Below, piece by piece: positions 12,163 to 33,251 of a DNA stretch of 64,000 nucleotides. Each line of letters opens with the position of its first letter. The stretch's first letter is position 1. Source of the stretch: Nitrospira sp. (GTDB lineage: Bacteria > Nitrospirota > Nitrospiria > Nitrospirales > Nitrospiraceae); assembly GCA_036984305.1 (NCBI GenBank), contig BQWY01000002.1, positions 24,151 to 88,150 on the forward strand. Direction: 5' to 3'. A program made the position numbers and the translations under genes. Below the pieces are notes generated by a model. The model did not search any database, was not told where the DNA came from, and saw nothing but the letters and a program-made list of their open reading frames with translations.

Positions 12163-12242
12163 TGTCGTTCTCCTCGCCACGTTTGAGCTGTTGGTTGCGT
12201 GGCTTCTGTTCAACCTCCATCCCGCACTTCCGCCACACCCAC

Positions 12243-12284
12243 AAAAAAAAAGCGTCCCTATTCCCTTCAGGGGAACAAGGACGC
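12243..12284 (-). terminator. intrinsic terminator A in the 5' leader of the ABC-cynS unit
   Basis: Minus strand: GCGUCCUUGUUCCC-CUGAA-GGGAAUAGGGACGC followed by U9. Confidence 0.8.
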
Positions 12285-12292
12285 CGTCGTCC
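12279..12292 (-). promoter_or_regulatory. GGAC-GACGGC-GUCC hexaloop hairpin overlapping the 5' arm of terminator A (candidate antiterminator P2)
   Basis: Read directly. Its 3' arm GUCC is part of the terminator A stem. Loop has G1 and G4. Confidence 0.55.
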
Positions 12293-12315
12293 AAAGGCGG
12301 AGGCTTCGTGCCCCC

Positions 12316-12335
12316 GTGAGACTTCAGTGTCTCAC
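12316..12335 (-). promoter_or_regulatory. GUGAGAC-ACUGAA-GUCUCAC hexaloop hairpin (candidate ANTAR P1)
   Basis: Perfect 7-bp stem. Hexaloop has A1 and G4. Lies 23 nt upstream of the P2 hairpin at 12279..12292. Confidence 0.55.
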
Positions 12336-12342
12336 ATCGCCC

Positions 12343-12387
12343 AAAACTAAAAAGGCGTCCGCCATTCTTACACGAATGACGGACGCC
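12343..12387 (-). terminator. intrinsic terminator D downstream of glnA
   Basis: Minus strand: GGCGUCCGUCAUUC-GUGUAA-GAAUGGCGGACGCC followed by UUUUUAGUUUU. About 125 nt after the glnA stop. Confidence 0.75.
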
Positions 12388-12396
12388 TTTGTCCGT
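12379..12396 (-). promoter_or_regulatory. ACGGAC-AAAGGC-GUCCGU hexaloop hairpin overlapping the 5' arm of terminator D
   Basis: 6-bp stem. Hexaloop has A1 and G4. Mutually exclusive with the terminator D stem. A TATAAC -10-like hexamer lies at 12405..12410. Confidence 0.55.
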
Positions 12397-12515
12397 GACC
12401 TATTGTTATAGTGTGCCGTTAGTCCGGCGTCGTTGCCAAACCACGACCTATGGTGGGGAGCTTACCACAGCTTCTCTCGACTCGTCAACCTACTTAATCT
12501 CCCCCGTAAACCCGC

Positions 12516-13925
12516 CTATACATCGTAGTACAGGTAGTATTCATACGGCACCGGTCGCAAGCGCATGGGATCGACTTCCTTGGCGCGCTTGTAGCCAATC
12601 CAGGCCTCGATCAGATCTTCGCTGAAAACACCGCCCTTGAGCAGGAATTGGTGATCCTTCTCCAAGTTGCGCAACGACTCTTCCAGGCTGCCCGGCATGG
12701 TCGGGATCTTCGCCGCTTCCTTGGCCTCGAGGTCGTAGAGGTCCTTTTCGGCCGGTTCTCCGGGATTGATCTTGTTTTCGATGCCGTCGAGACCCGCCAT
12801 CAACATGGCTGAAAACGCCAGGTACGGGTTGCAGGATGGATCCGGAAAGCGCACCTCGATGCGTTTGGCCTTCGGACTCGGCGAATACATCGGTATTCTG
12901 ATCCCTGCCGAGCGATTACGGCTGGAGTAGGCCAGCAACACCGGCGCCTCGAAGCCGGGCGTCAGGCGCTTATACGAGTTGGTCGAAGGATTGGTGAAGG
13001 CCGCCAACGCGGGAGCGTGCTTCAAGATCCCGCCGATATAATACAGGCAGAGTTGCGAGACGCCCGCATACTCCTTGCCCGCGAACAACGGCTTCCCGTC
13101 TTTCCAAATGCTCTGATGCGTGTGCATACCCGACCCATTGTCCCCGAATATGGGTTTCGGCATGAAGGTCACGGTCTTCCCATGCCGGCGGGCTACGTTC
13201 TTGACGATATACTTATACATCATCATTTTGTCGGCCGTGCGCAGCAGCGAATCGAACCGGATATCGATCTCCGCCTGACCCGCCGTGGCCACCTCGTGGT
13301 GGTGCTTCTCGATCTGGATTCCGGCCTTTTCCATTTCCAAAATCATCTCGCTGCGGATGTCCTGCTGCGTATCGGTCGGGGCCACCGGGAAATAGCCTTC
13401 CTTATGGCGGATCTTCCCGCCCAAATTTGGGCCTTCCTGCCCGCTGTTCCAGATGCCCTCCTCCGAATCGACAAAGTAGTATCCGCTATGGCTGGTTTGA
13501 TCGTAGCGGGCCTGGTCGAAGATGAAGAACTCGGCCTCGGGGCCCCAATACGAGATGTCTCCGATCTTGGTGCTTTGCAAATGTTTCTCGGCCTTTTGGG
13601 CCACGTACCGCGGATCGCGATCGTACATTTCCCTCGTGATGGGATCCAACACGTTGCCGACCATGCTCAAGGTCGGGACCGTGCAGAACGGATCCAAACA
13701 GGCGGTCGCCGGATCGGGAATCAGCAACATGTCGCTGTTGTTGATAGCCTTCCAGCCGCGGATGGACGATCCGTCCAGGCCGGAGCCGTCTTTGAACAGC
13801 CCTTCGGTCAATTCCCCGACGGGAATGCTGAAATGCTGCCACGTCCCAATCAAATCGATGAACTTGAGATCGACGACTTGTACCTTGTTCTTCTTCGCGA
13901 GCTCCATCACTTCCTTGACCGTCAT
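12516..13925 (-). CDS. glnA: glutamine synthetase type I
   Basis: 469 aa from ATG 13925 (AAGGAGG upstream). GSI motifs FDGSSI-like (LDGSSIRGW), [32 protein letters not shown]. Confidence 0.95.
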
Positions 13926-13948
13926 TACGCCCCTCCTTTTCAAGACCG

Positions 13949-17034
<3,086 letters not shown>

Positions 17035-17071
17035 TCAACTGCACACCAGCCCGACCTTGCATCGCGCCGCA

Positions 17072-18424
17072 CTACGAGTAGGCTCGTTCATTGTGTCCGG
17101 ACAAATCCAACCCGCTGGCCTCTTCGTCCGGTGTCACGCGCAATCCGACTGCTCCATCGACCACTTTCAGGAGGATATACGTCACAATGATCGAAAAGAC
17201 GGTGACTGCGCACACGGTGAGAGCCTGAACACCGAAGAATGCCGCACCACCGAAGAACAACCCGTCGGCCCCTCCGGCATTAACGGCTTTGGAAGCGAAC
17301 AAGCCTGTGGCGAGAATACCCAAGATGCCGCCTACGCCGTGGATGCCCACCACGTCAAGCGCGTCATCATAGCCGAACTTCCCCTTCCAAACAATTGCCA
17401 AGTAGCACAGGCACGCTCCAATGGCTCCGATCAGGATGGACGAAAATGGCCCGACGTAACCGGCCGCGGCCGTCACCGTGGTTAGCCCGGCGACCGCTCC
17501 GCTCGCCATCCCGAGCACGGTTGACTTCCCGCGGTGTTTCCACTCCACGAACATCCACATGAGCCCGCCTGACGCTGCTCCGAGGTGCGTCGCGACGAGC
17601 GCGGTCACCGCCACCCCATTGGCCCCAAGGGCCCGTCCCGCATTGAGCCCGAACCAGCCGAACCACAGCAATCCTGCTCCCAGTAACGTTAAGGGAAGGT
17701 TATGTGGGGCAATGTAGTCGGTACGATAGCCACGCCGCTGCCCAAGTACCAACGCACACACGAGCGCGGCCACGCCCGAGTTGATGTGCACCACGGCCCC
17801 CCCGGCAAAATCCAGCGCGCCCAGCTTGCTCAGCCAGCCCCCACCCCATAGCCAATGGGCAACCGGCGCATAGACGATCAGCGACCAGAGGAGGGCAAAC
17901 AACAACATGGCGCTGAAACGAACACGCTCGGCAAGCGCCCCGCTAATCAACACGGGGGTGAATGCCGCAAGCATGAGTTGGAACAGCATAACGGCCTGAT
18001 GGGGTACGGTCGGCCCATACGTCCGGTGCGGGTCCAACCCCACGCCGGAAAGGAACATCCATTCAAGACTTCCGATCATTCCTCCAAGGTCGGTGCCGAA
18101 CGTGAGCGTGTAGCCGACCACGACCCATGCCAGTGATACCGCGCAAAGAATACTGAGGCCATGCATGATGGTGGCCAGCGCATTCTTTTTTCTGACGAGC
18201 CCCCCGTAGTACAGTGCGAGGCCCGGCACGATCATGACCAGCACGAGCGCCGTCGAGGCCAGCATCCATGCCGTGTCACCGCTATCAATGTTCGGTCCCC
18301 CGCTCCCGGGTTGGCCGGATTGCGCCCACGCTGTATCACCGCCCACTCCCGCTATCAGCAGCCCCACCAGTCCCCCCACGCTTGCCAGGGCAAGACCGTC
18401 TGCCGTACGCCGATGGAGTCTCAC
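17072..18424 (-). CDS. amt: ammonium transporter with signal peptide
   Basis: 450 aa. Amt motifs LYYGGLVRKKNALAT, DFAGGAVVHINSG, DDALDVVGIHGVGG. GTG start preceded by GGGAGGA. Confidence 0.92.
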   Translation of the reverse strand: MRLHRRTADGLALASVGGLVGLLIAGVGGDTAWAQSGQPGSGGPNIDSGDTAWMLASTALVLVMIVPGLALYYGGLVRKKNALATIMHGLSILCAVSLAWVVVGYTLTFGTDLGGMIGSLEWMFLSGVGLDPHRTYGPTVPHQAVMLFQLMLAAFTPVLISGALAERVRFSAMLLFALLWSLIVYAPVAHWLWGGGWLSKLGALDFAGGAVVHINSGVAALVCALVLGQRRGYRTDYIAPHNLPLTLLGAGLLWFGWFGLNAGRALGANGVAVTALVATHLGAASGGLMWMFVEWKHRGKSTVLGMASGAVAGLTTVTAAAGYVGPFSSILIGAIGACLCYLAIVWKGKFGYDDALDVVGIHGVGGILGILATGLFASKAVNAGGADGLFFGGAAFFGVQALTVCAVTVFSIIVTYILLKVVDGAVGLRVTPDEEASGLDLSGHNERAYS

Positions 18425-18495
18425 ATCGTCCTCCCTTCAGACACGCATCATTCAGGTGAGAAACGGGGCCTAGCCCTCGCCGGGGCCACCTGCCT

Positions 18496-20280
18496 CTAGC
18501 GTTCCTCCCGGTATCGGTTCGTGATCGGCATTCGCCGATCCTTACCTAATCCGCGGTGAGTAATCTTGATTCCTACCGGTGCCTGCCGGCGCTTGTACTC
18601 GCTCCGGTCGACTTGCGCGACAACATGCTCCACCGTGTCACGCGCAAATCCCATTCCGACCATCTCATCGACCGAACAATCGTCTTCTACATAGGCCTTG
18701 AGAATTGGGTCCAAGACCGCATAGGGCGGCAAGGAATCTTCATCGCGTTGGTCTGGACGAAGCTCGGCGGTCGGCGGACGATCCAGGATCCGTTTGGGAA
18801 TCACGGGATTCGCTTCGTGTTCGTTCCGCATCCGGGCCAGCTCGTACACGAGAGTTTTCGGTACGTCCTTGATGACGGCAAATCCACCTGCCATGTCGCC
18901 GTATAACGTCGCGTAGCCGACGCTCATCTCGCTCTTGTTGCCGGTGGTCAACACGAGATGTCCGAACTTGTTGGAGAAGGCCATCAGGAGATTGCCTCGG
19001 ATCCGCGCCTGCAGATTTTCTTCCGTCACATCGGATTGACACCCCTCGAAGGATGACGCCAGTGACTTCCGGTACGCCTCGAAGACCTGGGTGATCGGGA
19101 GCGAGCGGCATTCGATCCCAAGCCGGCGCGCCAGCGCGGCAACGTCCTCGTGGCTCTCCTCGGAGGTATAGGGAGACGGCATAAACAAAGCCAGTACGTT
19201 ACCTGGACCGAGCGCGTCCGCGGCAATGGTCGCCGTGAGCGCGGAATCCACCCCGCCGCTCACCCCAATGACCACACGCCGAAAGCCGTTTTTCCTCACG
19301 TAGTCACGGACTCCAACCACGAGGGCACGATAGACCTCGGCCAAAGGGGTCAATAGTGGAGTCTGGGCCGCCACGAGCCTCGGCCGCTTTACCGACGCCG
19401 GCTGCGTGCTCGGCAACAGCAGCCTTTCCACGCCCACATGCCGGCGTCCCATCGCGGCCTTGCGCGATCCCTGTCCGATGCGGCCGCGTCCGACAGGTTG
19501 CGCGTTCACATCAGCGAGGAGGAAATCCTCCTCGAATGCTTTTGCTCGCGCGATCACCTCGCCCGTCTGGTCGAGGATCACACTGTTTCCATCGAAGACG
19601 AGCTCGTCTTGTGCCCCGACGATGTTCGTGTATGTCACGATGACGTGATGATCCCGAGCACGCGTGGCCAACATCTGCTCACGCTGGCGGCTCTTGCCCA
19701 TGTGGAACGGGGACGCGTTAATATTTACGATGATTTCGGCCCCGGCTGCCGCCTGGGCTTTCGTGGGCCCTTCCGGGAGCCAGATATCCTCGCAGATATT
19801 CACGCCCAGACAGGTCCCATTGAGCATCAAAACCGGAACCCGGCTGCCGGGCATGAAGTAGCGGTTTTCATCGAACACCCCGTAGTTCGGCAGGTGTTGC
19901 TTGGCGTACACGGTGACCAATTGCCCATTGACGATCACAGCCGCGGCGTTATACAGCGCGCCTCGCCCTGACGGTAGCGAGACAGCTCGCCGAGACGACG
20001 CCGAAGGCTCCAGTTCCTGTCCCACATAGCCAACCACGACGGCGAGATCGCGGCATTGCGGTATCAGTTTCTCGAGTGCCAGTCGCGTGTCCTCGATGAA
20101 ACGCGGTTTGAGTAACAGATCTTCCGGCGGATATCCCGTCAATCCCAACTCGGGAAAGGCCACCAGATCGGCATTGGCTTTTCGTGCTTCCTTGATCCAT
20201 CGTTCAATTGCAGCGAGGTTACCCGTGAGATCTCCCACGGTCGGATTCATCTGCGCCATCGCGATCCGGAAGAGCCGCAT
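18496..20280 (-). CDS. nadE: glutamine-dependent NAD+ synthetase (nitrilase/CN-hydrolase domain plus NAD synthetase domain)
   Basis: ATG 20280 is preceded by AAGGAG. N-terminal CN-hydrolase (FPELGLTGYPPEDL, ICEDIW). C-terminal SGGVDS PP-loop. The upstream part of the 666-aa ORF covers the leader and terminator and is not coding. Confidence 0.9.
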   Translation of the reverse strand: MRLFRIAMAQMNPTVGDLTGNLAAIERWIKEARKANADLVAFPELGLTGYPPEDLLLKPRFIEDTRLALEKLIPQCRDLAVVVGYVGQELEPSASSRRAVSLPSGRGALYNAAAVIVNGQLVTVYAKQHLPNYGVFDENRYFMPGSRVPVLMLNGTCLGVNICEDIWLPEGPTKAQAAAGAEIIVNINASPFHMGKSRQREQMLATRARDHHVIVTYTNIVGAQDELVFDGNSVILDQTGEVIARAKAFEEDFLLADVNAQPVGRGRIGQGSRKAAMGRRHVGVERLLLPSTQPASVKRPRLVAAQTPLLTPLAEVYRALVVGVRDYVRKNGFRRVVIGVSGGVDSALTATIAADALGPGNVLALFMPSPYTSEESHEDVAALARRLGIECRSLPITQVFEAYRKSLASSFEGCQSDVTEENLQARIRGNLLMAFSNKFGHLVLTTGNKSEMSVGYATLYGDMAGGFAVIKDVPKTLVYELARMRNEHEANPVIPKRILDRPPTAELRPDQRDEDSLPPYAVLDPILKAYVEDDCSVDEMVGMGFARDTVEHVVAQVDRSEYKRRQAPVGIKITHRGLGKDRRMPITNRYREER

Positions 20281-20352
20281 GGTACTCCTTCGAAACTCCC
20301 GTGACCGACTCCATTTCCTGAGCGACCGGACGTGTCGCCGTCCTGCACGAAC

Positions 20353-20399
20353 AAAAAAAAACGTCCTTGATTCCCAGACGATTGGGAACCCAAGGACGT
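20353..20399 (-). terminator. intrinsic terminator B in the nadE leader, downstream of ureD
   Basis: Minus strand: ACGUCCUUGGGUUCCCA-AUCGUC-UGGGAAUCAAGGACGU followed by U9-10. Confidence 0.85.
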
Positions 20400-20407
20400 C
20401 ATTGTCC
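20394..20407 (-). promoter_or_regulatory. GGAC-AAUGAC-GUCC hexaloop hairpin overlapping the 5' arm of terminator B (candidate P2)
   Basis: Read directly. Loop has A1 and G4. Its 3' arm is the first part of the terminator B stem. Confidence 0.6.
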
Positions 20408-20435
20408 GTGGTTATGTCGTACCGACACCCTGATC

Positions 20436-20451
20436 GAGACGCCTTTGTCCC
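20436..20451 (-). promoter_or_regulatory. GGGAC-AAAGGC-GUCUC hexaloop hairpin (candidate P1)
   Basis: 5-bp stem including one G-U pair. Loop has A1 and G4. Lies 28 nt upstream of P2 and 15-20 nt downstream of the TATAAC -10. Confidence 0.55.
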
Positions 20452-20466
20452 AGGACGGTAGCAGGC

Positions 20467-20496
20467 GTTATAGCAGCCTCCCTCGCTCATTGTCAA
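20467..20496 (-). promoter_or_regulatory. sigma70-type promoter for the nadE unit
   Basis: Minus strand: TTGACA-18 nt-TATAAC. Located between the ureD stop (20560) and the leader hairpins. Confidence 0.6.
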
Positions 20497-20559
20497 TCAA
20501 GGCATGCCGTATCCTTACGCAGGGACACGTACGGGTCGAATGCTGCTGGGTGCCACCAG

Positions 20560-21537
20560 TCAATACCGTCGCAGATCGGGACGCGGCCGGCCCCAACACA
20601 TGCCCCGCACCGCTTCCCACAGGCCCTCGTACAGCCTGGTCAATGCCGGACACGATCTCGCCAGCACCTTGACCACGATACCGGGCGCAGCGGACCTGGA
20701 GACGCCGGCCAGAACGCCCTGCCCTTCCCATGCCCGGGCACATGATCGAAGAGACGAGTCCAGTCGATCCCACGTGGCTTCCCCAATGGCATCTCCGATG
20801 ACGTAGAGCGAGGCGGAATAATTCCACTCGCCCATGACATCCGATGTCCCCTGCCAAAGCCCCGGCCTGGCGACCGCACGATCGATCAGCCGAGCCCCCG
20901 AAGCAACCTGCACGCATACGTCATTCGTGTAGTCGTCGAACGCCCACCGCTCACCCCGAGCAATTCGGCCGGCTGCCATCGCATCCCAGATGACGAGGGT
21001 CGCCCCCGGGGCAAGCTTCGCCTCGAGGCGTTGGACATACCGGGAACCCGCAAAGGGAATGGTCAGCTCAGGCATCCATTCGAGGATGCTCCCCTGCCCA
21101 AGCCGCAGCGAAACGTGCTGCGTCGCCGGAAGAGAAAGGGAACGATACACGCGCGTCGCCGAAGGTGACGAAACGACCACGTGCGCGTTGTCCTTCAGAT
21201 CAACGGCACAGGAGACCACATCCCCACCCACCAGGCCCCCCGACGGGTTGACCAGCCACGTCAACAGCGCGCGGCCATCGTCAAGCTCGATCGGCGGCAC
21301 AGAGTGCCAGGGACTGGTGCACCGGACCGCGTCCAGAACCGTGCGGTCGTGGCAGGAAGAAAATGAGAGCGCGAGCTCACCCAGGCGTCCGACGCTGTCC
21401 AGCGATGGAGCCGTCGGTGACGAGATGGAGGACTTCGATGGGATTAGCCTGGAGTGACGCGTTGCGGCAGCCCGTGCTCGACCCACCCCACCACGGCCGG
21501 CACGCCTTCGCCCGTTAAGAGATTCGTGAAGATCCAC
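20560..21537 (-). CDS. ureD: urease accessory protein UreD
   Basis: UreD-like sequence (GELALSF..., [12 protein letters not shown]). Position after ureG. Start is uncertain: GTG 21537 or GTG 21486, and both overlap the ureG 3' end. Confidence 0.8.
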
Positions 21538-22121: not shown

Positions 22122-22156
22122 AACCTTGTCCTTTCGTAGTCGCCGAACGAGACCCG

Positions 22157-22870: not shown

Positions 22871-22887
22871 GGACACAATCCGTTCAC

Positions 22888-24615: not shown

Positions 24616-24684
24616 GACGAAACCTCAGACGAATTGTGCGCGACCTGACGGCAATGCGTTCGCCCCTCTTCCCACGATCCTGCC

Positions 24685-25149
24685 TTACGCCTTTGCCCGC
24701 GGAATGAAGCCTTGATCGTATGCAGCCGCCAAGGCCCTCGCTTTCACATCCACGTCGTCGAGCGAACCGTTCACCAGCCCGTTGATGCCGTAGACGACTC
24801 GCCTGCCCCCAAATGCCACGAGAGCGACTCGTTTCTCCTCTCCAGGTTCAAATCTCACGGCGGTTCCCGCCGGCGTCTGCAGCCGAAACCCATAGGCCTG
24901 CTCCCGATCGAACTGCAGCGCCCGATTGACTTCGAAGAAGTGGCAATGCGAGCCGACCTGAATCGGCCGATCGCCCGTATTGGCGACCGTCATCTGAATC
25001 GTCGGACGACCCGGCAGCGCCACGATGTCGCCCTCACCCAACAGAATCTCCCCAGGATGAACGTCGGCGGAGTGCCTCTCGGGCCGAGCGCCCATCCGCT
25101 TCCGAGCCGGCTTTGCACGCCGGGCCCGCTTGGTGATGTTCTTGGCCAT
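24685..25149 (-). CDS. ureB: urease beta subunit with a basic N-terminal extension
   Basis: Core [19 protein letters not shown]...[12 protein letters not shown] is canonical UreB. ATG 25149 follows the ureA stop and adds about 30 basic residues. The alternative ATG 25095 gives about a 10-aa extension. Confidence 0.9.
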
Positions 25150-25157
25150 GCCTCGCC

Positions 25158-25460
25158 TCATCGGATCGGTTGATGTACCGTCACCAGCTTGGTCCCGTCC
25201 GGGAAGGTCCCCTCCACCTGGAGTTCCGAGATCATGTCGGACACTCCCGGCATGACATCATGTCGCTTCAAAAGAGTGGCCCCGTAACTCATCAAGTCGG
25301 ACACCGATCGTCCATCGCGAATTCCTTCCAGAATGGCCGCTGTCAGGTAGGCCATTGCCTCAGGATGATTCAGCTTGAGTCCCCGAGCCTTCCGGTCTCG
25401 AGCCAGCTGCGCGGCCACATAGATCAGCAATTTGTCTTGCTCCCTGGGCGTCAGATGCAT
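25158..25460 (-). CDS. ureA: urease gamma subunit
   Basis: 100 aa. [35 protein letters not shown] is canonical. Confidence 0.96.
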
Positions 25461-25463
25461 CGC

Positions 25464-25865
25464 TCAGTCTCTCCGCAGTCGGTTCAACTCGACAAGCACG
25501 GCATGGGCGTCATGAAACAACGTGGCCCCTTCTGGTATGGTTCCCTTGTACAACCTGACCATCACTGACGTGCTCCGGGTCAACATCAAACTGTCGAAAC
25601 GTTCTCCCATCTCGAAGTAGTCATATCCTCGCTGAACTGTCAGTTCGGCGCAGCGCAGCCGCACAAAATCATCCACCGTCTTCTGCGACGTCAGCGCGCC
25701 GGCCGAGTAGCGGACCTGGAACTCGCTCTCCGTGAGCTGCGTGATATCCTGCCCGTCGGTCCTGTCGAGCGATTGATACGCGGTCGTGACGCACCCGCAC
25801 AATCCCACCAGCACGCAGACCATTATCGTGCCAAGGCGCGCCCGGATGACAAGTCCTGAGATCAC
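25464..25865 (-). CDS. hypothetical lipoprotein between urtE and ureA
   Basis: Signal plus lipobox (MVCVLVGLCGC). Ends 4 nt before the ureA start. Start is GTG 25865 or ATG 25823. Confidence 0.6.
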   Translation of the reverse strand: MISGLVIRARLGTIMVCVLVGLCGCVTTAYQSLDRTDGQDITQLTESEFQVRYSAGALTSQKTVDDFVRLRCAELTVQRGYDYFEMGERFDSLMLTRSTSVMVRLYKGTIPEGATLFHDAHAVLVELNRLRRD

Positions 25866-25877
25866 GACGCGTCTCTC

Positions 25878-26588
25878 TTATACCACCAGATGCTGTCTGA
25901 CCACGTCGTCGCTCAATTCTCCGGAGTTGCCGGCTGCCACTACCGCCCCTTTTGCCATAATGACATAGGCATCGGCAAGCCGGGCGGCAAAGTGCAAGCC
26001 CTGCTCCACCAGTAGGATGGCAAAACGGCGCTGAGCTTTGAAGCCGATGATCACGTCTTCAATTTGGTCGACCACCGACGGCTGAATCCCTTCGGTCGGT
26101 TCATCAAGCAGCAACACCTTGGGATTGGTCAGCAACGCACGCGCAATGGCGAGTTGTTGCTGTTCGCCGCCGCTCAAAACGCCGCCCGGACGATCGAGAA
26201 TCTGTTTCAATTTTGGGAAAAGTGAAAACACTTCCTCGAAGGCCGCTGATTCCGTCTGCGCGCTGTCCACATCGGCTCTCGCCCATAGGCCCAGTTTGAG
26301 ATTCTCGCGAACGGTCAGATGCGGCAAAATTTCGCGCCCCTGCGGCACGAATCCCAAGCCATACCCCACGCGCCGGTCTGGGGTCGCTTTCGTGATGTCG
26401 GATCCATTGAAGCTGACCTGCCCGCTCCTGACCGGAATGAGCCCCATGATCGCCTTGAGCGTAGTCGTCTTGCCGACGCCGTTGCGCCCCATCAGGCAGA
26501 CGACTTGTCCGGAGTCCACGTCAAACGTGACATTCCGCAGGATATGACTCTCGCCGTAATACGCGTTGACGCCATCGAGTCGCAACAT
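25878..26588 (-). CDS. urtE: urea ABC transporter ATP-binding protein UrtE
   Basis: LivF-like ATPase (GRNGVGKTT, LSGGEQQQL, LLLDEP) at the fifth position of the urt operon. ATG 26588 is preceded by GAAGGG. Confidence 0.88.
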   Translation of the reverse strand: MLRLDGVNAYYGESHILRNVTFDVDSGQVVCLMGRNGVGKTTTLKAIMGLIPVRSGQVSFNGSDITKATPDRRVGYGLGFVPQGREILPHLTVRENLKLGLWARADVDSAQTESAAFEEVFSLFPKLKQILDRPGGVLSGGEQQQLAIARALLTNPKVLLLDEPTEGIQPSVVDQIEDVIIGFKAQRRFAILLVEQGLHFAARLADAYVIMAKGAVVAAGNSGELSDDVVRQHLVV

Positions 26589-26672
26589 AGCGCCCTTCAC
26601 CCTTCGACAGACGATGACGGCCGTTGAGCAAGCGTGCGTTTGGCGACGCCGTTCGCCAGTTCGTGCCGGTCG

Positions 26673-27440
26673 CTAGACGTGGGCGACCTTTTGCCGGCCT
26701 AGGTAGATCTCGCGCACGCGATCATCGGCCTGCACGGTTTCCACGGTTCCTTCGCAGATCACCGTTCCCTCGTGCATCACCGTCACCACCCGTGCGATCT
26801 GTCGTACGAATTCCATATCATGCTCAATCACCACAATGGCGTGCTCCTGCGCTAGGGACAGCAGGAGTTGGCCGGTTTGCTCGGTCTCTCGGTCGGTCAT
26901 CCCCGCCACCGGTTCGTCTACGAGAAGGAGCGACGGGTCCTGCAAGAGGACCATGCCGATTTCCAGCCATTGTTTCTGCCCATGTGACAACGATCCGGCA
27001 CGCGTGTGCCGATAGTCCGGCAACCCGATTGTCTCCAATACTCCCTCGATGCGATCCTGTTCCGGTTTTGTCGTAAGCCCTCTGAGCGTGGCCCATACGC
27101 CCTTGCTGGGACGCTTGAGCGACAGGTCGAGATTCTCCCACACGGTCAAATTGGCGTAGATCGACGGCGCTTGGAACTTCCGGCCGATGCCCAGCGAGGC
27201 GATCTCGTGCTCCCGCAGCGGTAAGAGATCCGTATCGTGGCCAAAGATCACTCTGCCCGCAACCGGCTTCGTCTTTCCCGATATGACGTCCAGCAAGGTC
27301 GTCTTCCCCGCTCCATTGGGACCAATCACGACCCGTAGTTCTTTGTACCCTACGATGAAATTCAGGCAGTTCAACGCTTTGAATCCGTCGTAGTCGACGG
27401 TGACCCCTTCGAGATAAATGATCGAACCATGATCCGTCAT
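26673..27440 (-). CDS. urtD: urea ABC transporter ATP-binding protein UrtD
   Basis: LivG-like ATPase ([26 protein letters not shown]). ATG 27440 overlaps the urtC stop (ATGA). Confidence 0.88.
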   Translation of the reverse strand: MTDHGSIIYLEGVTVDYDGFKALNCLNFIVGYKELRVVIGPNGAGKTTLLDVISGKTKPVAGRVIFGHDTDLLPLREHEIASLGIGRKFQAPSIYANLTVWENLDLSLKRPSKGVWATLRGLTTKPEQDRIEGVLETIGLPDYRHTRAGSLSHGQKQWLEIGMVLLQDPSLLLVDEPVAGMTDRETEQTGQLLLSLAQEHAIVVIEHDMEFVRQIARVVTVMHEGTVICEGTVETVQADDRVREIYLGRQKVAHV

Positions 27441-28588
27441 GTGAGAATCCACTTGCCAGGGCTCGATCCCTTGGCGATTTCCGATTGCTCGGGACGGACC
27501 CAGATCTTGACCCGTCCCCACAATCCGACGATCCCATCCGGCACGAATAAGACCACGGCAACAAACAGTCCCCCGAGTAAGAACGGCCACAGTTCAGGGA
27601 AGTAATTCGTCAACACGCTCCGCCCCCAATTGACGCCGATTGCCCCGATAATCGCCCCAATCAAGGTCCCTCGTCCACCAACCGCCACCCAAATCACCAT
27701 CTCCAGCGAGGGGAGGACCCCGATCTGCGCCGGAGTAATGATTCCGACTTGAGGCACATACAACGCCCCGGCGAGCCCCGCGAGGGCAGCAGAGACCACG
27801 AACACGAACAGCTTGTACTGGGCCGGTGAATACCCCGAAAACAACACGCGCTGCTCGCTGTCTCGAATCGCGACCAGCACTTTCCCCGCCCGGGATTGCA
27901 CGATGGCTCGACAGAGGATATAGGCCACGCCCAGACACACGACCGTGAACAAATAGAGCGACCGCTGTGTCCAAGGCTCGCTCAGGCGGAACCCCAAGAG
28001 CAGCTTGAAATCGGTGAGTCCGTTCGTCCCTCCGAGATTCGTCTCATTGCGGTTGAAAACCAGCCAGGCACAGAGCGCCAACGCTTGGGTGATGATGGCG
28101 AAATATACGCCTTTGATACGGCTTCGAAACGCCAGCGAACCGAAGACAAACGCACAGGCCGCCGGCACCATGAGCGCCCCGAGAACGGCAACGGGGAAAT
28201 AGTGAAATGGCTTCCAAAACAGCGGCAACTCCTGCACCTGGTTCCAGACCATGAAGTCGGGCAGCGCGCTCCCGTACACGCTCTCCGTCCCGATCGAGAG
28301 CGCCATGTACATCCCCATCGCATAGGCCCCCAGGCCGAAAAAGACACCATGACCGAGGCTCAGAATGCCTGCATAGCCCCAGATCAGGTCCAACCCCAGT
28401 GCAAGGATGGCGAACGAAAGGAACTTACCGAATCGATTGAGTGAGAAATCGGATACATGCCACCATGAATCGGCCGGAGGCACGATATTCAGCCCTGGAA
28501 GTACCACCAAAAACACGGCTGCCATGATCCATACGCCGGGGCCCACTTGCAGGCCACGTCGCTGGTCATTGGGCTCAGGATTCGGCAT
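27437..28588 (-). CDS. urtC: urea ABC transporter permease UrtC
   Basis: 383 aa LivM-like polytopic permease in urt context. Confidence 0.87.
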   Translation of the reverse strand: MPNPEPNDQRRGLQVGPGVWIMAAVFLVVLPGLNIVPPADSWWHVSDFSLNRFGKFLSFAILALGLDLIWGYAGILSLGHGVFFGLGAYAMGMYMALSIGTESVYGSALPDFMVWNQVQELPLFWKPFHYFPVAVLGALMVPAACAFVFGSLAFRSRIKGVYFAIITQALALCAWLVFNRNETNLGGTNGLTDFKLLLGFRLSEPWTQRSLYLFTVVCLGVAYILCRAIVQSRAGKVLVAIRDSEQRVLFSGYSPAQYKLFVFVVSAALAGLAGALYVPQVGIITPAQIGVLPSLEMVIWVAVGGRGTLIGAIIGAIGVNWGRSVLTNYFPELWPFLLGGLFVAVVLFVPDGIVGLWGRVKIWVRPEQSEIAKGSSPGKWILT

Positions 28589-30155
28589 GGCGTCCTTTGA
28601 TGGCGAACAGCCCGGAGGGCCGGCGTTGTAGAAATAGCACCACTAGCAGGAGAATCGTGACCTTGGCATATACGGCTCCCATGCTCGGTTCAAAAACTTT
28701 GTTGAGGCCGCCGATGCCAAGCGCCGCCGCAATCGTACCGGCAAGCTTTCCGACGCCACCGGTTACGACGACCATGAAGGAATCGACGATATAGTTCTGC
28801 CCAAGGCCAGGCTCCACATTCCCGATCAGTGTGAGCCCCCATCCCGCAAGTCCTGCAAGCCCGGAGCCGAAGGCAAAGGTATATGCATCGACCTGGCGAG
28901 TCGGGATTCCCAGGCACGCACTCATGTTCCGATTCTGCATGACCGCCCGGACCCGAAGGCCAACTCGCGTGCGGAACAGGAGCGCGTAGATCGCCATCAC
29001 GCTCACCGCCGAGAGCACGATCAAGAAGAGCCGGTTGTACGGGACGAACACGCCAACCATCACCTGCACCCCTCCACTGAACCATGCCGGCGCCGTCACC
29101 GCGGTCAGGTCTCCGAACATGACACGGGCCGACTGAATCAAGATCAAACTGACGCCCCACGTCGCCAACATCGTTTCCAGGGGCCGACCATACAAGAAAC
29201 GAATCACGGACATCTCCAAGAGCAAACCGACCAGAGCGGCCGCGAGAAACGAGCAGGGCAACGCCGCCCAAAAATACCAGTCGAACACCTCGGTGGGCAA
29301 ATACGCTTTGAAGAGTTCCTGGGTGACGAACGTCGCATAGGCCCCGATCATCATCAACTCGCCATGGGCCATGTTGATGACGCCCATGAGGCCAAAGACG
29401 ATCGCCAAGCCCAACGCCATCATTAGGAGGATGGAACTGAGGCTCAACCCGTGAAAAAGCGTTTCGAACACTCCAGCCCACACGCCCCACCGTTCGGTTT
29501 GCTCGATGGCCTGGTGGGCCGTGGCCAATACGTCCGGGCTCGGCTGGCCGCTCCCTGCGCCTGTGGTCTCTGATTCGTCGGCATTCGCCTCTTCGACCAG
29601 CTCCTTCAAACGCGGCAGTCCATTGGGGCTGGCCAGATCGCCCAGCGTACGCACGGCCTCCACTTGTTGCTGGGTGGTACCATGTGCCAGACGAATCAGC
29701 GCGAGTGATTCTCGTAGCGCGTAGCGGACCCATCGATGCGACTCCGAGACCAGCTGGCTCTCGAGCCACGGTACCGCGAGTGGGCTTCCCACCGAACCCA
29801 GATCCGTGGCCGCTGCACGCCGCACTTCTGGGTCGTCGTCGCCAAGCTTCGCGCGATTTTTCAGCAAGTCCAAAACGGGCTTGAGCGCCCGGCGCGTCGA
29901 CCGGTCCGCCTCCTCGCGCAATGCCTCCAACTGTGACAGCAAGTTTGGATCGGAAGATTCGACCAACTCGGCGGTCGCCGCCTCTTGCTCGGCGGGATCC
30001 TCCGCCGTCAACCGAGCAATCGTATGCTCGAGACCGGCGACGGGAGTCACCCCACCGCCGGTCTCGGCCCAACTCCCCGCCGGCCATGCCAACCAGAGCC
30101 ACGCTAGGGCGATCCCGGCCAACACCCGCACCACGGCTCTAGTCGGTTGCCTCAT
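28575..30155 (-). CDS. urtB: urea ABC transporter permease UrtB with an N-terminal HEAT-like periplasmic domain
   Basis: C-terminal LivH-like permease. The N-terminal roughly 200 aa has a signal peptide then helical repeats (DPEVRRAAATDLGSVGSPLAVPWL...). ATG 30155 lies after the urtA stop. Confidence 0.85.
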   Translation of the reverse strand: MRQPTRAVVRVLAGIALAWLWLAWPAGSWAETGGGVTPVAGLEHTIARLTAEDPAEQEAATAELVESSDPNLLSQLEALREEADRSTRRALKPVLDLLKNRAKLGDDDPEVRRAAATDLGSVGSPLAVPWLESQLVSESHRWVRYALRESLALIRLAHGTTQQQVEAVRTLGDLASPNGLPRLKELVEEANADESETTGAGSGQPSPDVLATAHQAIEQTERWGVWAGVFETLFHGLSLSSILLMMALGLAIVFGLMGVINMAHGELMMIGAYATFVTQELFKAYLPTEVFDWYFWAALPCSFLAAALVGLLLEMSVIRFLYGRPLETMLATWGVSLILIQSARVMFGDLTAVTAPAWFSGGVQVMVGVFVPYNRLFLIVLSAVSVMAIYALLFRTRVGLRVRAVMQNRNMSACLGIPTRQVDAYTFAFGSGLAGLAGWGLTLIGNVEPGLGQNYIVDSFMVVVTGGVGKLAGTIAAALGIGGLNKVFEPSMGAVYAKVTILLLVVLFLQRRPSGLFAIKGRHAES

Positions 30156-30172
30156 TGAATCGCTTCGTCGCC

Positions 30173-31543
30173 CTACTTCTTTTTGTAGGTACCCTGATGC
30201 GCAACCCAATCGCATCCCTTGTCTGGATTGGTATACTCACTCCAGGGCTCCGGTTTGACGAGTCCCTTCGAGCGCCAGATCGTCTTGAACTGGCCATCCT
30301 TGCGGATCTCTCCAATCAACACCGGTTTGTGGGTGTGATGATTCGCCGAATCCATCATGATCTCGCCGCCTGGGGCCAAGAACTTGCTGCCATAGACCGC
30401 CTTGCGCACCTTGTCCACCGCGGTCGAGCCAGCCTTCTCCACGGCTTGTTTCCACACATGCACCCCGAAGTAGGCGGCTTCGATCGGATCGTCCGTGACG
30501 CGATTGCCACCATCCGGCAGCTTGTTCTTTTCGCAATACGCCTTGAAGTTTGACACGAATTTTTTATTCTGCGGTGTATCGACGCTCTGGAAATAGTTCC
30601 ATGCCGCGAGGTGCCCCACCAACGGAGTCGTATCCATCCCACGCAACTCGTCTTCGGCGACGCTGAACGCCATGATCGGCGCATCCTCAGACCGAAGTCC
30701 TTGATTGGCGAATTCCTTGTAGAACGGAACATTGCTGTCTCCATTGATGGTGCTGATGACGCAGGCGCCGCCTCCGGCGGAAAATTTCTTAATCTTTCCG
30801 ACGATCGTTTGATAGTCCTGGTGATGAAAGGGCGTATACTCCTCCATGATATTGGCGGCTGCCACCTTCTTCGCCAACAACATGGCGCGAAGAATCTTGT
30901 TCGTCGTGCGTGGATACACGTAGTCAGTGCCCAACAGATAGAACTTCTTGTACTCGCCACCCTCCTTGCTCATGAGATACTCGACTGCCGGCACGGCCTG
31001 TTGATTGACCGCCGCCCCCGTATAGAAGACGTTGTGCGAGCATTCTTCGCCCTCGTATTGGACGGGGTAGAACAGCAAGCCGTTGTTCTTTTCGAATACG
31101 GGAAGCACTGATTTCCGGCTGACGGACGTCCAACACCCGAATACGACCGCCACCTTGTCCTGCAGGAGCAGACCCTTCGCCTTCTCCGCAAACAGATCCC
31201 AGTTCGACGCGGGATCCACCACCACCGGTTCGATCGGTCGTCCCATGACCCCGCCCTTGGCGTTGATCTCTTCGACAGCCATCATGACCACATCCCGCAG
31301 GGATACCTCGCTGATCGCCATCGTGCCGCTCAGCGAATGCAAGATACCGATCTTGATCGGTTCCTTCCCCGCTGCATATGACAATGCCCAATGTCCGAGG
31401 TTCCCCAGGAGCGCAGCCACACCGATCCCGGCCGCCGTTCGCCCCCCCTTGGACAAAAGTTCCCGACGGGAGAGGTTTTCAGGCCCGGCCTCGTCCGCAA
31501 GAGGCTTCTGTGTGTCGGTCGTCGTTTCGTTAATAGGTTTCAT
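30173..31543 (-). CDS. urtA: urea-binding periplasmic protein UrtA (Tat signal)
   Basis: 456 aa. SRRELLSKGGRTAAGIGVAAL signal. LivK/amide-binding fold sequence. AAGGAG before the ATG. Confidence 0.9.
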   Translation of the reverse strand: MKPINETTTDTQKPLADEAGPENLSRRELLSKGGRTAAGIGVAALLGNLGHWALSYAAGKEPIKIGILHSLSGTMAISEVSLRDVVMMAVEEINAKGGVMGRPIEPVVVDPASNWDLFAEKAKGLLLQDKVAVVFGCWTSVSRKSVLPVFEKNNGLLFYPVQYEGEECSHNVFYTGAAVNQQAVPAVEYLMSKEGGEYKKFYLLGTDYVYPRTTNKILRAMLLAKKVAAANIMEEYTPFHHQDYQTIVGKIKKFSAGGGACVISTINGDSNVPFYKEFANQGLRSEDAPIMAFSVAEDELRGMDTTPLVGHLAAWNYFQSVDTPQNKKFVSNFKAYCEKNKLPDGGNRVTDDPIEAAYFGVHVWKQAVEKAGSTAVDKVRKAVYGSKFLAPGGEIMMDSANHHTHKPVLIGEIRKDGQFKTIWRSKGLVKPEPWSEYTNPDKGCDWVAHQGTYKKK

Positions 31544-31568
31544 CGTTCGACTCCTTTTGCTTCTCGGC

Positions 31569-32951
31569 TTAGAAGTTGTACCACCAGGACAGCATGAAGT
31601 TGTCGCCTTGATTCTGGTCTCCAGTTGTCCAGTGCGTCATGAGGTGATTCCACTCCAGTCCGGTATAGAAGTCTCCCCACAGATGTCGGACCGCTGTCAG
31701 ATAGAACCGGTGGTTCAGCAGATATTGGGTATCGGGCCCGGCGGTGGTCCCGGCAAGGTCGGAGTTAAACGGATTGTCGAACCCGTACCCACCGACGAAG
31801 GTATACTTATGAGAGTGGGCATAGTTTAATTCCGCCCATCCCACCATCGTCCGAATCACCTTACCGGTGCCAAGGTTCCGTTCCTGCCCGTAACGAAACC
31901 ATTCCACGCCTAATCCCTGCCCGTAGGCAATTTCACCCGTGAACTTCAGGCGGCTCGTAATGGGCACGACTAACTCGCCGCCGACCACGAATGATTGGAT
32001 ATCCTGTCCAGACGGAATCCCACCGGTTGCCGCGGTGGGAGCGGATCGGTAGTACCGATAGGCCGCATTGGCGGCGATCATGAAACCCTGCTGTTTCCCG
32101 GTGCCGGTGTAGGCCCAGCGCGTTCCCACATACGGCATTTGCACAGGATCGTTGAAGGCGTTCTCCGAACAGGCAAACGCCCCGGTTGGATTCGTACAGC
32201 TCACCGGAGGCGATCCGCCGACGGCGCTTCCCGTGAAGGGCCGCCGCTGTGTCTGCGGCTGGATGGCAGAAAGACCGCGCTCAAACCGCATAACCGTCAA
32301 CAAACCATCCACATGGTCGCTGAATCGATGTTTTAACGTGATTTGCGGCAAGCGCTGCCAGAGATTGCCGTTGTACCCCATGATCGAGAAATCGATGAGA
32401 TTGGGGTGCAATCCCATGATCGGCGTCCAATCTTGCCCGACCGTCAACGTGGATCGCCCATTGTTGGGCGAGTACTTGACGTTGGCCAAACGCAAGCGCG
32501 GGAGAATGTTGCCTGCATTGTCCGTTTGCCCGTAAAAATCTGTCTCAACCACACCGGACAGCGAATGTTTGCCATCCGTTCGATCAGCGCGCAATCCGAA
32601 TACGCTGTATCGCGGATTGAGCGTGCTGCTGCTGTTCGAACTCGTTCCGGCCGCCGTGGCATACCCGTTGAACTGCCCCGGGTCCAGTGGGTTATTATTT
32701 CTCGTACTGTAAATGGCGTCCAATTCGACCCGCCCGTAGGGACTGATGCTGCCTTTTCCGTCCGTGGGAAACGCCGGTGCAATGCATCCTGCGCAAAGAA
32801 TCGGGGGCGGCGTCTCTTCTTCGCGGATGAGACGTCCCGCTCCTGCCGCCTCTTCCGCACTCTGCTCTTCGGCATAGGCCCCGGGCACCGCCACCAGCGT
32901 GGCAATGATCAGCACCCCCAACCACTTTCGATACATACCGTCCGCATTCAT
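31569..32951 (-). CDS. outer-membrane porin, likely urea/short-chain-amide selective (FmdC-like by position)
   Basis: Signal peptide (LGVLIIATLVAVPGAYA). Beta-rich sequence ending in the ...WWYNF C-terminal OMP signature. First gene of the urt unit. AGGAGG lies 9 nt before ATG 32951. Confidence 0.75.
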   Translation of the reverse strand: MNADGMYRKWLGVLIIATLVAVPGAYAEEQSAEEAAGAGRLIREEETPPPILCAGCIAPAFPTDGKGSISPYGRVELDAIYSTRNNNPLDPGQFNGYATAAGTSSNSSSTLNPRYSVFGLRADRTDGKHSLSGVVETDFYGQTDNAGNILPRLRLANVKYSPNNGRSTLTVGQDWTPIMGLHPNLIDFSIMGYNGNLWQRLPQITLKHRFSDHVDGLLTVMRFERGLSAIQPQTQRRPFTGSAVGGSPPVSCTNPTGAFACSENAFNDPVQMPYVGTRWAYTGTGKQQGFMIAANAAYRYYRSAPTAATGGIPSGQDIQSFVVGGELVVPITSRLKFTGEIAYGQGLGVEWFRYGQERNLGTGKVIRTMVGWAELNYAHSHKYTFVGGYGFDNPFNSDLAGTTAGPDTQYLLNHRFYLTAVRHLWGDFYTGLEWNHLMTHWTTGDQNQGDNFMLSWWYNF

Positions 32952-33006
32952 CCCTTCGCCCTCCTGGTTGAGAGACCGTCTAGTCTTGACCGCAGGGCGT
33001 CGGAAC

Positions 33007-33047
33007 AAAAAAAAACGCCCTTCCGGCCCATTTGGACCAAAAGGACG
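33007..33047 (-). terminator. intrinsic terminator C (T2) in the porin-urt leader
   Basis: Minus strand: CGUCCUUUUGGUCC-AAAU-GGGCCGGAAGGGCG (14 bp including G-U pairs) followed by U9. Lies about 55 nt upstream of the porin start codon. Confidence 0.8.
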
Positions 33048-33056
33048 CCGTTGTCC
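33043..33056 (-). promoter_or_regulatory. GGAC-AACGGC-GUCC hexaloop hairpin overlapping the 5' arm of terminator C (candidate P2)
   Basis: Read directly. Loop has A1 and G4. Its 3' arm is shared with the terminator stem. Confidence 0.6.
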
Positions 33057-33070
33057 TCATGTGAACTTGG

Positions 33071-33158: not shown

Positions 33159-33251
33159 TGGGTTTCTTCTTATCTGCACTCCTGTGGTACACTGCGGCAA
33201 ACCACGAAGTGCCCAGCCGTCCTCATGATGTTTGGGTACCCCCCAGCACAC

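Follow-up and report, generated by a model that had tools for sequence, protein, structure and literature searches.

The 64,000-nucleotide (nt) stretch of Nitrospira DNA analyzed here, called the window throughout, carries nearly all of its genes on the minus strand. Pfam and NCBIfam scans identify among them a nitrogen-assimilation supercluster, in which leaders C, B, and A and unit D follow one another in order of transcription. These regions hold five RNA units, each a pair of hairpins running into an intrinsic terminator, which appear to gate four operons: urea transport and urease; nadE-amtB-glnB-glnD-glnA; an ATP-binding cassette (ABC) transporter with cynS and amt, preceded by two units in series; and a small open reading frame (ORF) with amt. 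The units are very probably antiterminators of the kind recognized by ANTAR-domain proteins, a mechanism that we infer from characterized systems, and a gene for a GAF-GAF-ANTAR protein sits 1.2 kb upstream of the urea leader (leader C). Coordinates of all features are collected in Table 1.

A Recurrent Hairpin in Nitrogen-Gene Leaders

The first-pass annotation of this DNA had reported five minus-strand copies of a 14-mer in leader regions. A computed scan of both strands of the window for the pattern GGACRANGRCGTCY returns exactly those sites (12279, 12381, 20394, 20437, and 33043), all on the gene strand, whereas 100 dinucleotide-preserving shuffles give a mean of 0.02 copies and none of them reaches five. 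The arms without the loop, GGAC-N6-GTCC, match six times in the window (1.6 expected; one shuffle in 100 reaches six). The two extra matches, at 36782 and inside glnD, carry unrelated loops as had been described, although the one in glnD starts at 14284 and not at 14283. A relaxed motif search of the window allowing two mismatches offers no gain over chance (24 matches, 16 expected).

The 14-mer is a 4-bp hairpin with a hexaloop that has A at position 1 and G at position 4 (loop A1/G4) and is closed by a C:G pair, which is the signature of an ANTAR-target RNA. Its four GTCC copies, with loops AAAGGC, GACGGC, AAUGAC, and AACGGC in units A1, A2, B, and C, respectively, are the second hairpins (P2) of two-hairpin units, and each lends its 3' half to an intrinsic terminator, whose 5' arm begins with the final bases of the loop followed by the hairpin's own 3' arm. 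This coupling had been noticed before; terminator scans and folds find each copy fused to a strong terminator. Window-wide and on both strands, no R..G.. hexaloop hairpin other than these four shares its 3' arm with a U-run terminator. A second hexaloop hairpin (P1) stands upstream of each P2, with loops AACGAC, ACUGAA, AAAGGC, and AGCGUG in the same order of units. The 14-mer was thus correctly seen as a recurring leader element but is half of the complete one, and the copy at 20437, though present, is not a separate site: it is the P1 hairpin of the unit whose P2 lies at 20394, their loops 43 nt apart. Because it is half of a known class, the ANTAR-type dual-hexaloop antiterminators, the element is not a new kind of operator.

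A strict scan for pairs of such hairpins (closing C:G, loop A1 and G4, stem of at least 4 bp, the two hairpins 16–60 nt apart) was run over the whole window, both strands included; it gives four pairs, none of which is on the plus strand. Three are of the GGAC type, with loops spaced by 43, 43, and 44 nt; the fourth, at 6824–6862, has a 5-nt linker and a GCCGGC stem. With its terminator this last unit, D, occupies 6771–6862, outside the range of the first-pass annotation, whose terminator-coupled sites all stand but whose list was incomplete. Unit A2, with its loops 40 nt apart, joins the list once G is tolerated as the first loop base, and all five units lie in leaders on the gene strand; the same scan also returns four more short-stem pairs, inside gene-covered regions. 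P1 stems in the five units measure 5–13 bp and P2 stems 4–6 bp, and nine of the ten hairpins keep the A1/G4 rule, the sole exception being P2 of unit A2, with G at position 1. The linkers are 20–27 nt long in the four GGAC-type units and 5 nt in unit D.

Table 1. Leader units, putative promoters, operons, and candidate regulator in the window (MFE, minimum free energy)
Feature	Position	Strand	Sequence or content	Basis
Unit C, P1 hairpin	33081-33104	-	UCGUGGAAC-AGCGUG-GUUCCACGA; loop A1/G4, closing C:G	MFE fold, strict pair scan, P1 helix covariation in 56 sequences
Unit C, P2 hairpin	33041-33058	-	GAGGAC-AACGGC-GUCCUU (14-mer 33043-33056)	Motif and pair scans; loop-to-loop 43 nt to P1
Unit C, intrinsic terminator	33004-33049	-	5' arm from G4 of P2 loop; U-run 33004-33012	MFE fold, RNAalifold of 23 urea leaders, energies
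Unit B, P1 hairpin	20435-20452	-	UGGGAC-AAAGGC-GUCUCG (14-mer 20437-20450)	Motif, partner, and pair scans
Unit B, P2 hairpin	20394-20407	-	GGAC-AAUGAC-GUCC	Motif and pair scans; loop-to-loop 43 nt
Unit B, intrinsic terminator	20353-20400	-	Over P2 loop and 3' arm; U-run 20353-20361	MFE fold, RNAalifold of 15 nadE leaders, energies
Unit A1, P1 hairpin	12415-12447	-	13-bp stem, one bulge, hexaloop AACGAC	MFE fold; aligned to P1 of Rfam P11
Unit A1, P2 hairpin	12379-12396	-	ACGGAC-AAAGGC-GUCCGU (14-mer 12381-12394)	Motif and pair scans; 14-mer is GGACAAAGGCGUCC in P11 consensus
Unit A1, intrinsic terminator	12345-12390	-	17-bp stem and U-run	Terminator scan, fold, energies
Unit A2, P1 hairpin	12315-12336	-	UGUGAGAC-ACUGAA-GUCUCACG	Fold, partner and pair scans
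Unit A2, P2 hairpin	12279-12292	-	GGAC-GACGGC-GUCC (G replaces A at loop position 1)	Motif and pair scans
Unit A2, intrinsic terminator	12242-12285	-	15-bp stem and U9	Terminator scan, fold, energies
Unit D, P1 hairpin	6847-6862	-	UCGAC-AAUGCG-GUCGA	Folds, pair scan
Unit D, P2 hairpin	6824-6841	-	GCCGGC-AAAGGC-GCCGGC; 5-nt linker, stem not GGAC	Pair scan; loop-to-loop 22 nt
Unit D, intrinsic terminator	6771-6835	-	From A1 of P2 loop, then U6	MFE fold (z = -4.2), energies
Putative sigma-70-like promoter, leader C	33129-33158	-	TTGACA-N18-TACAAG	Sequence reading, conservation
Putative sigma-70-like promoter, leader B	20467-20496	-	TTGACA-N18-TATAAC	Sequence, conservation
Putative sigma-70-like promoter, leader A	12459-12488	-	TTGACG-N18-TAAGCU, just past glnA stop	Sequence, pattern scan
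Candidate regulator, GAF-GAF-ANTAR protein	34266-35534	-	422 amino acids; two GAF domains and ANTAR PF03861 (E = 3e-19)	Pfam
Operon C	20560-32951	-	Secreted 460-amino-acid protein, urtA, urtB, further ABC-transporter genes, lipoprotein, ureA, ureB, ureC, ureF ... ureD	Pfam, NCBIfam
Operon B	12516-20280	-	Glutamine-dependent NAD synthetase nadE, amtB, glnB (PII), glnD, glnA	Pfam
Operon A	7040-12165	-	NMT1_2-type ABC substrate-binding protein, permease, ATPase, cyanase cynS, ammonium transporter	Pfam
Operon D	5379-6742	-	68-amino-acid ORF without family match, then second-type ammonium transporter	ORF list, sequence, Pfam

Conservation across the Genus

The comparison set consisted of 80 Nitrospira loci (L001–L080) centered on the ANTAR gene and totaling 1.33 Mb. 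In these flanks the 14-mer pattern has 97 copies on the gene strand and none on the opposite one, with 0 copies in the 632 kb upstream of the ANTAR gene versus 97 in the 592 kb downstream. It follows the ANTAR gene in 57 of the 61 genomes that have at least 4 kb of downstream flank, most commonly about 1.1–1.2 kb or about 0.11 kb past the stop codon. All 97 copies classify into leader units: 59 are terminator-fused P2 hairpins, 25 are P1 hairpins (the P2 of the unit being identical in sequence), and 13 are variants of these leaders. When hexaloop hairpins of whatever sequence that overlap a terminator were sought without bias, 77 matches came up, 59 of them GGAC/GUCC hairpins with AAYGRC loops. 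The random scatter through coding regions that the first-pass annotation had named as telling against function is not seen in these flanks, and its reading of the motif as a functional RNA operator and not a product of chance holds up: the copies are strand-specific, leader-specific, and terminator-coupled, and they are conserved genus-wide at orthologous nitrogen-gene leaders.

Downstream of the 59 units in the other genomes stand nitrogen-assimilation genes throughout. The pair formed by the gene for a 460-amino-acid protein and urtA follows 32 units, and nadE is the first gene after 19; a BBP2 porin with amt, DUF6733 with amt, and, in one genome (L031), a nirB-type nitrite reductase also occur. 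Leaders are conserved at orthologous positions across species whose regulators are about 71–89% identical. These distributions bear on the idea, also raised by the first-pass annotation, that the 14-mer belongs to a generic repeat associated with terminators or resembling repetitive extragenic palindromes, or is an accident of G+C-rich terminators, with no regulatory role. The short stems and the joining of every copy to a terminator would fit such an origin, but a palindromic repeat should be dispersed, in both orientations, and beside genes of any function, whereas the bias here is 97 to 0 and the copies lie only in 5' leaders of nitrogen-assimilation operons, never at other terminators. Given also their orthologous positions and a specific upstream partner in 60 of 63 units, we regard a generic repeat as extremely unlikely.

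The figure of 60 refers to non-redundant units with an upstream A1/G4 hexaloop hairpin, against about five by chance. The P1 consensus is RRAC-AANGRN-GUYY, in which the two loop-adjacent pairs, C:G and then A-U, are invariant or nearly so. P1 candidates were chosen by requiring the top four pairs, with the lower four left free, and among 56 sequences the helix has a covariation score of 0.539 versus 0.224 in shuffles (0 of 500 reach the observed value; slid controls, 0.07–0.21), with double changes in seven of the eight pairs. The closing C:G pair, which was not imposed in the choice of candidates, is present in 56 of 56 P1 sequences and in all P2 hairpins. Loop A1/G4 occurs in all distinct P1 sequences by selection; among 29 distinct P2 sequences, 28 have A1 and all have G4. 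RNAalifold of 23 urea leaders and 15 nadE leaders yields P1 plus a terminator that starts at G4 of the P2 loop, with the linker left unaligned.

Since P1 pairing persists through sequence change, selection acts on RNA and not on a DNA half-site. This matters for an alternative in which a dimeric transcription factor of nitrogen genes binds the 14-mer as a palindromic operator in DNA, GGAC-N6-GTCC: at the DNA level the two arms are indeed perfect inverted repeats of each other, and co-regulated genes have their promoters close to the sites. The sites are, however, 50–110 nt downstream of the promoter hexamers, within the transcribed leader; the asymmetric loop is always sense-oriented, 97 to 0; the 3' arm is always shared with a terminator; and units with short linkers have the same loops despite unrelated stems. 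We find a DNA operator hardly credible.

The length of the linker is constrained, with a loop-to-loop mode of 43 nt and GGAC-type linkers mostly of 22–30 nt genus-wide, and across the genus no conserved linker sequence or structure was found. A role for a linker hairpin, seen in Rfam family P11 and in three of the four window units, that might draw P1 and P2 together was considered and rejected, as 59 distinct linkers fold no better than shuffles (mean z = -0.26).

Units with short linkers also occur elsewhere in the genus. Those of L006 and L065 (7 nt) lie, with a terminator, in the intergenic region between glnA and the ABC-binding-protein gene, a region orthologous to leader A. A second site, in the N. 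defluvii group, lies between nadE and amt. In N. defluvii itself (L026:15010-15150) it reads GACCGAC-AACGAC-GUCGGUC, 7 nt, CUGGC-AAUGGC-GCCAG, ahead of the amt-bearing cluster and with no U-run terminator, and the element recurs in L014, L019, L028, L034, and L052. The MFE fold of the L026 site pairs the 3' half of P2 with CUCUCU...GGAGGCGUCAUG, that is, with the ribosome-binding site and start codon. This predicted pairing suggests ANTAR-dependent activation of translation rather than antitermination at the nadE-amt site.

One clade, including Nitrospira sp. CG24A and the metagenome-assembled genomes RSF3 and RSF6, keeps P1 and P2 (GGACAAUGGCGUCC; L017:12360-12500, and likewise L018, L022, L023, L025, L027, L046, L055, L059, L060, and L072). 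Here P2 runs into UGUCG..GACAGAAUGACCGGAAGGGCCUUUUCC, which is what is left of the urea-leader terminator, its U-run broken, and the gene downstream resembles none of the reference genes in the window; the element may have decayed or taken on another role.

Folding, Promoters, and Proposed Mechanism

The predicted terminators appear in the MFE folds of the leader units. Computed for naked RNA, the terminator fold beats a fold with P2 enforced by 8–16 kcal/mol (8.7 in unit C, 16 in unit A1, and 8 in unit D), and the GGAC hairpin by itself is worth only -4 kcal/mol. Because naked RNA favors the terminator in these calculations, the default state would be termination unless a factor keeps P2 closed. 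The terminator stem of the urea leader (33013-33049, minus strand) hardly varies among 23 species and retains several G-U pairs (UUUUGG with CCGGAA); such a hairpin can therefore form only in the sense RNA.

Alternative pairing is generic to attenuators, and together with the conserved spacing of about 43 nt between loops it would also fit a protein-independent riboswitch, or a target of a non-ANTAR RNA-binding protein, working by a like competition between terminator and antiterminator. We consider this very unlikely. Rfam scans of the window match no riboswitch model (e.g., glnA RNA or the glutamine riboswitch) at the gathering threshold or at E up to 1, the linker offers no conserved sequence or structure able to form a ligand pocket, and the conserved positions are exactly those of ANTAR recognition: A1, G4, and the closing C:G pair.

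Promoter-like hexamers of the form TTGACA-N17-19-TAnnnn lie 40–57 nt upstream of P1 in nearly all units of the 80 genomes, according to a relaxed pattern scan; the -35 TTGACA is almost invariant genus-wide and the conserved -10 hexamers are TATAAG- or TATACA-like. A strict promoter scan of 11500-21500, whose -10 hexamer had to end in T, found none; the relaxed pattern finds the conserved sites. Promoter conservation this strong is unusual for nitrogen-regulated genes. A sigma-54 promoter near 33213 was considered and rejected on its spacing, as judged by eye and with no computed scan; no sigma-54-promoter match was seen by eye at the leader promoters, though rpoN lies in the window (44089-45600). 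As the promoters look constitutive, control may be mainly post-initiation.

We consider likely the explanation as a whole, namely that ANTAR dual-hexaloop antiterminators gate the nitrogen operons, with the GAF-GAF-ANTAR protein as the likeliest regulator. In the layout we propose, a constitutive-looking sigma-70 promoter would be followed after about 10–25 nt by P1, a stem of variable sequence topped by AC(AANGNN)GU around its six-base loop; then would come the linker, a P2 hairpin that is usually GGAC-AAYGRC-GUCC, and a strong intrinsic terminator that would take the end of the P2 loop and the entire P2 3' arm into its own 5' arm. By analogy with EutV, NasR, and NasT, a dimeric ANTAR protein would bind both hexaloops on the nascent RNA through A1, G4, and the closing C:G pair. 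The bound protein would hold P2 closed and so block the terminator, and RNA polymerase would read into the operon. More speculatively, the protein may read nitrogen status, with glutamine the probable cue and 2-oxoglutarate perhaps a further one, and antiterminate under nitrogen limitation.

Two features of the leaders can be read in these terms. No promoter-like site was found between units A1 and A2 by pattern scan, so the two would act in series; with two complete units and no promoter between them, read-through of leader A should need two successful antitermination events, which would sharpen the response. The invariance of GGAC/GUCC may come from a three-way pairing in which GUCC pairs both with the upstream GGAC, in P2, and with the GGAC of the terminator 3' arm, leaving little room for drift. 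P1, which has no terminator constraint, keeps AC/GU and varies below it, so the ANTAR domain probably makes contact with AC...GU at the upper end of the stem.

The Candidate Regulator

The best homologues of the 422-amino-acid GAF-GAF-ANTAR protein, 77–89% identical, come from Nitrospira, including N. defluvii and Ca. N. bockiana, and an identical-sequence gene call exists on public contigs. The first GAF domain (residues ~25–184) resembles the N-terminal GAF of PtsP/EI-Ntr (NCBIfam, 1e-41) and the second the N-terminal GAF of NifA (NCBIfam, 3e-30), both at the domain level and below the whole-protein cut-off. Sequence matches in the PDB are to PtsP GAF domains (3ci6 and 3trc) and to ANTAR proteins (1s8n and 4akk), and the C-terminus matches the ANTAR domains of Rv1626 and NasR. 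The GAF domain of Azotobacter NifA binds 2-oxoglutarate. Glutamine is bound by the PtsP GAF domain (PMC4848567). Because one GAF domain is PtsP-like and the other NifA-like, we propose from these domain similarities that the protein may sense nitrogen status directly; that its signal is glutamine and/or 2-oxoglutarate is possible but rather doubtful.

The position of its gene suggests that this adjacent protein is probably the binder of the leader RNAs. It is unlikely that the leaders, while being ANTAR targets, are bound by another ANTAR protein encoded outside the window, such as a NasT-like REC-ANTAR protein, with the GAF-GAF-ANTAR protein serving other targets or only the short-linker class. 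Such an arrangement would agree with the closest known RNA, P11/NalA, being bound by the REC-ANTAR protein NasT, and the coexistence of two RNA classes, one long-linker with GGAC-type stems and one short-linker with CUGGC- or GCCGGC-type stems, could reflect two proteins. Against it stand the 57 of 61 genomes in which a motif-bearing leader follows the GAF-GAF-ANTAR gene, with no motif on the upstream side, and the lack of a second ANTAR domain among the roughly 50 window ORFs scanned with Pfam. Moreover, ANTAR domains of differing architecture have one RNA specificity in common (PMC7496416).

A bolder version is quite possible, though we would not call it probable: the tandem-GAF ANTAR protein would be the master nitrogen regulator of Nitrospira, nitrite oxidizers and comammox alike, a one-component, direct sensor of glutamine and/or 2-oxoglutarate through its PtsP-like and NifA-like GAF domains. 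With the sigma-70 promoters constitutive, it would turn on the whole nitrogen-scavenging supercluster by antitermination alone; this comprises the genes for urea uptake and urease, the cyanase cluster, and those for three ammonium transporters, PII, GlnD, glutamine synthetase, and NAD synthetase.

Gene Context in the Window

Ahead of the ANTAR gene lies aroB, named after a public gene call that bears DHQ_synthase. Between the ANTAR gene and leader C, a convergent plus-strand ORF (33225-34256) encodes a proline-rich protein of 343 amino acids with no Pfam match and is divergent from leader C; its position is conserved in other Nitrospira (e.g., L001:11266-12333, minus strand). Because this gene stands between them, leader C is not co-transcribed with the ANTAR gene. 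A sense-strand ORF in the same interval was considered and discarded, its tblastx signal being the mirror image of the plus-strand gene.

Within operon C, the labels urtC–E were given by position, and two ORFs, 27437-28588 (urtC) and 21444-22403 (between ureF and ureD), were left out of the family scans. The first gene of the operon (31569-32951, minus strand) encodes the secreted 460-amino-acid protein, which has no Pfam or NCBIfam match and is 54–75% identical in 32 other genomes, always directly before urtA. As the equivalent first gene behind other leaders encodes a BBP2-type porin, this protein may be an outer-membrane urea channel. The Rfam model 5_ureB_sRNA (RF02514; gathering score, 40) matches 24174-24469 on the plus strand with 86.8 bits. 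This places the match antisense to the 5' part of the gene for the urease alpha subunit, which occupies 22888-24615 on the minus strand. The match may merely reflect conserved coding sequence, the source of this Helicobacter antisense-RNA model.

Behind unit D, the 68-amino-acid ORF (6536-6742, minus strand) has a strong AGGAGG ribosome-binding site and an ATGA overlap with the start of the divergent ammonium transporter gene (5379-6539); it has no family match. An ATG at 6805, which would have made site D translational, was rejected as the gene start, as folding places it in the terminator loop; the real start, at 6742, is preceded by AGGAGG.

Significance for Nitrifiers

Nitrospira are the dominant nitrite oxidizers and, to our knowledge, the only complete ammonia oxidizers, so that nitrification in soils, waters, and treatment plants is shaped by how these bacteria exploit urea, cyanate, and ammonium. 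No paper linking ANTAR with Nitrospira was found in the searchable literature. What emerges here is a concrete, testable circuit in which a single 30-kb nitrogen supercluster contains five leader switches that are conserved genus-wide, and for which both a candidate regulator and a candidate signal can be named. It also opens a natural setting for work on GAF-ANTAR proteins, a class that Ramesh et al. (2012; PMC3369931) called uncharacterized and for which no functional study of any member was found in the searchable literature; if the assignments are true, no earlier GAF-ANTAR protein known to us has had its signal and regulon assigned. The NasT-type P2 hairpin, GGAC-AANGRC-GUCC, is common to Gammaproteobacteria and Nitrospirota. 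The RNA class and its mechanism are already well known, and no new kind of mechanism is revealed; the added value lies in a genus-wide regulon in key nitrifiers and in a candidate one-component sensor.

Comparison with Known ANTAR Systems

Known ANTAR targets are dual hexaloop hairpins with A1 and G4 whose P2 overlaps a terminator, and many bacterial genes for PII, amt, urea transporters, nitrate/nitrite transporters, and glutamine synthetase have them upstream (PMC3369931). A closing C:G pair also emerged from in vitro selection with NasR (PMC7496416). The terms Nitrospira, defluvii, and NIDE were not found in the text-format supplementary tables of Ramesh et al. (2012). P11, or NalA, is the Pseudomonas nirB leader bound by NasT, in which A1 and G4 of both loops are needed for binding and antitermination (PMC11387622; PMC10783516). 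Linkers measure 5–12 nt in E. faecalis, where 14 nt already impaired EutV, and an actinobacterial criterion allows 2–25 nt (Mehta et al. 2021). In a permissive Rfam scan, unit A1 aligned to P11 (RF00625) over its full length with 27.5 bits (E = 0.047 window-wide). The P11 consensus, ...C-AACGAU-G...GGAC-AAAGGC-GUCC-UCGCCGG...CCGGCG-GGACGCC, holds GGACAAAGGCGUCC, identical to 12381-12394 of the window. With only unit A1 matching, and below threshold, P11 was rejected as the family of these elements and kept as their closest relative.

Several points weigh against the explanation that we prefer, an ANTAR antitermination regulon under the GAF-GAF-ANTAR protein. The GGAC-type linkers exceed the range of E. 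faecalis and lie at or beyond the actinobacterial one; the P2 loop of unit A2 starts with G and not A; the P11 match is far below the gathering score (27.5 versus 70 bits), and no P11 match at E up to 1 was found in the other window units or in loci L026, L024, and L001; and nothing in the generic ANTAR model demands that GGAC/GUCC be invariant. Regulator and RNA are linked here through gene neighborhood only, so that an ANTAR protein encoded elsewhere in the genome could be the binder, and the ligand assignment draws on sub-threshold, domain-level similarity.

The Nitrospira leaders share with the targets of EutV (the Enterococcus faecalis eut leaders) and of NasR (the Klebsiella oxytoca nasF leader) the dual hexaloops with A1/G4 and a closing C:G pair, a P2 3' half common to an intrinsic terminator, an ANTAR gene nearby, and a nitrogen-metabolism theme. 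Their GGAC-type linkers of 20–37 nt differ from the short ones of the eut leaders, which unit D, with 5 nt, fits. They further differ from both sets of targets in having A at position 2 of the loop as well, an A-U pair that does not vary one step below the closing pair, a P2 stem whose sequence hardly changes across the genus, and, in one leader, two units in tandem. The predicted ANTAR nitrogen regulons of Desulfotomaculum, Pelobacter, and Geobacter are similar in that several leaders of operons for nitrogen assimilation or fixation (PII, amt, glnA, and urea transporters) each carry an ANTAR element and so make up a regulon; there the regulators are response-regulator ANTAR proteins driven by kinases (GnfK-GnfR in G. 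sulfurreducens; PMC2995071), whereas the candidate here is a tandem-GAF, one-component protein and the lineage is that of the Nitrospirota nitrifiers.

The likeness to NalA/P11 extends to a P1 hexaloop (AACGAU, with a closing C:G pair), a long linker, and a P2 of GGAC-AAAGGC-GUCC fused to the terminator (GGCGUCC...GGACGCC), with loop-to-loop distances of about 44 nt in P11 and a mode of 43 nt in Nitrospira; NalA controls nitrogen assimilation by antitermination, as proposed for the Nitrospira leaders. The Pseudomonas regulator, however, is the REC-ANTAR protein NasT, held by the nitrate sensor NasS, and its promoter is NtrBC-activated (PMC11387622), whereas here the candidate is a GAF-GAF-ANTAR protein and the promoters are sigma-70-like. 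The targets differ as well: P11 lies ahead of nirBD and beside nasS-nasT, whereas the genes behind the units here are urea, ammonium, glnA, PII, nadE, and ABC-binding-protein operons, with a nirB-type target only in L031; neither nasS nor nasT was found in the window. By analogy, the Nitrospira elements would work like NalA/P11, yet they fall outside that Rfam family.

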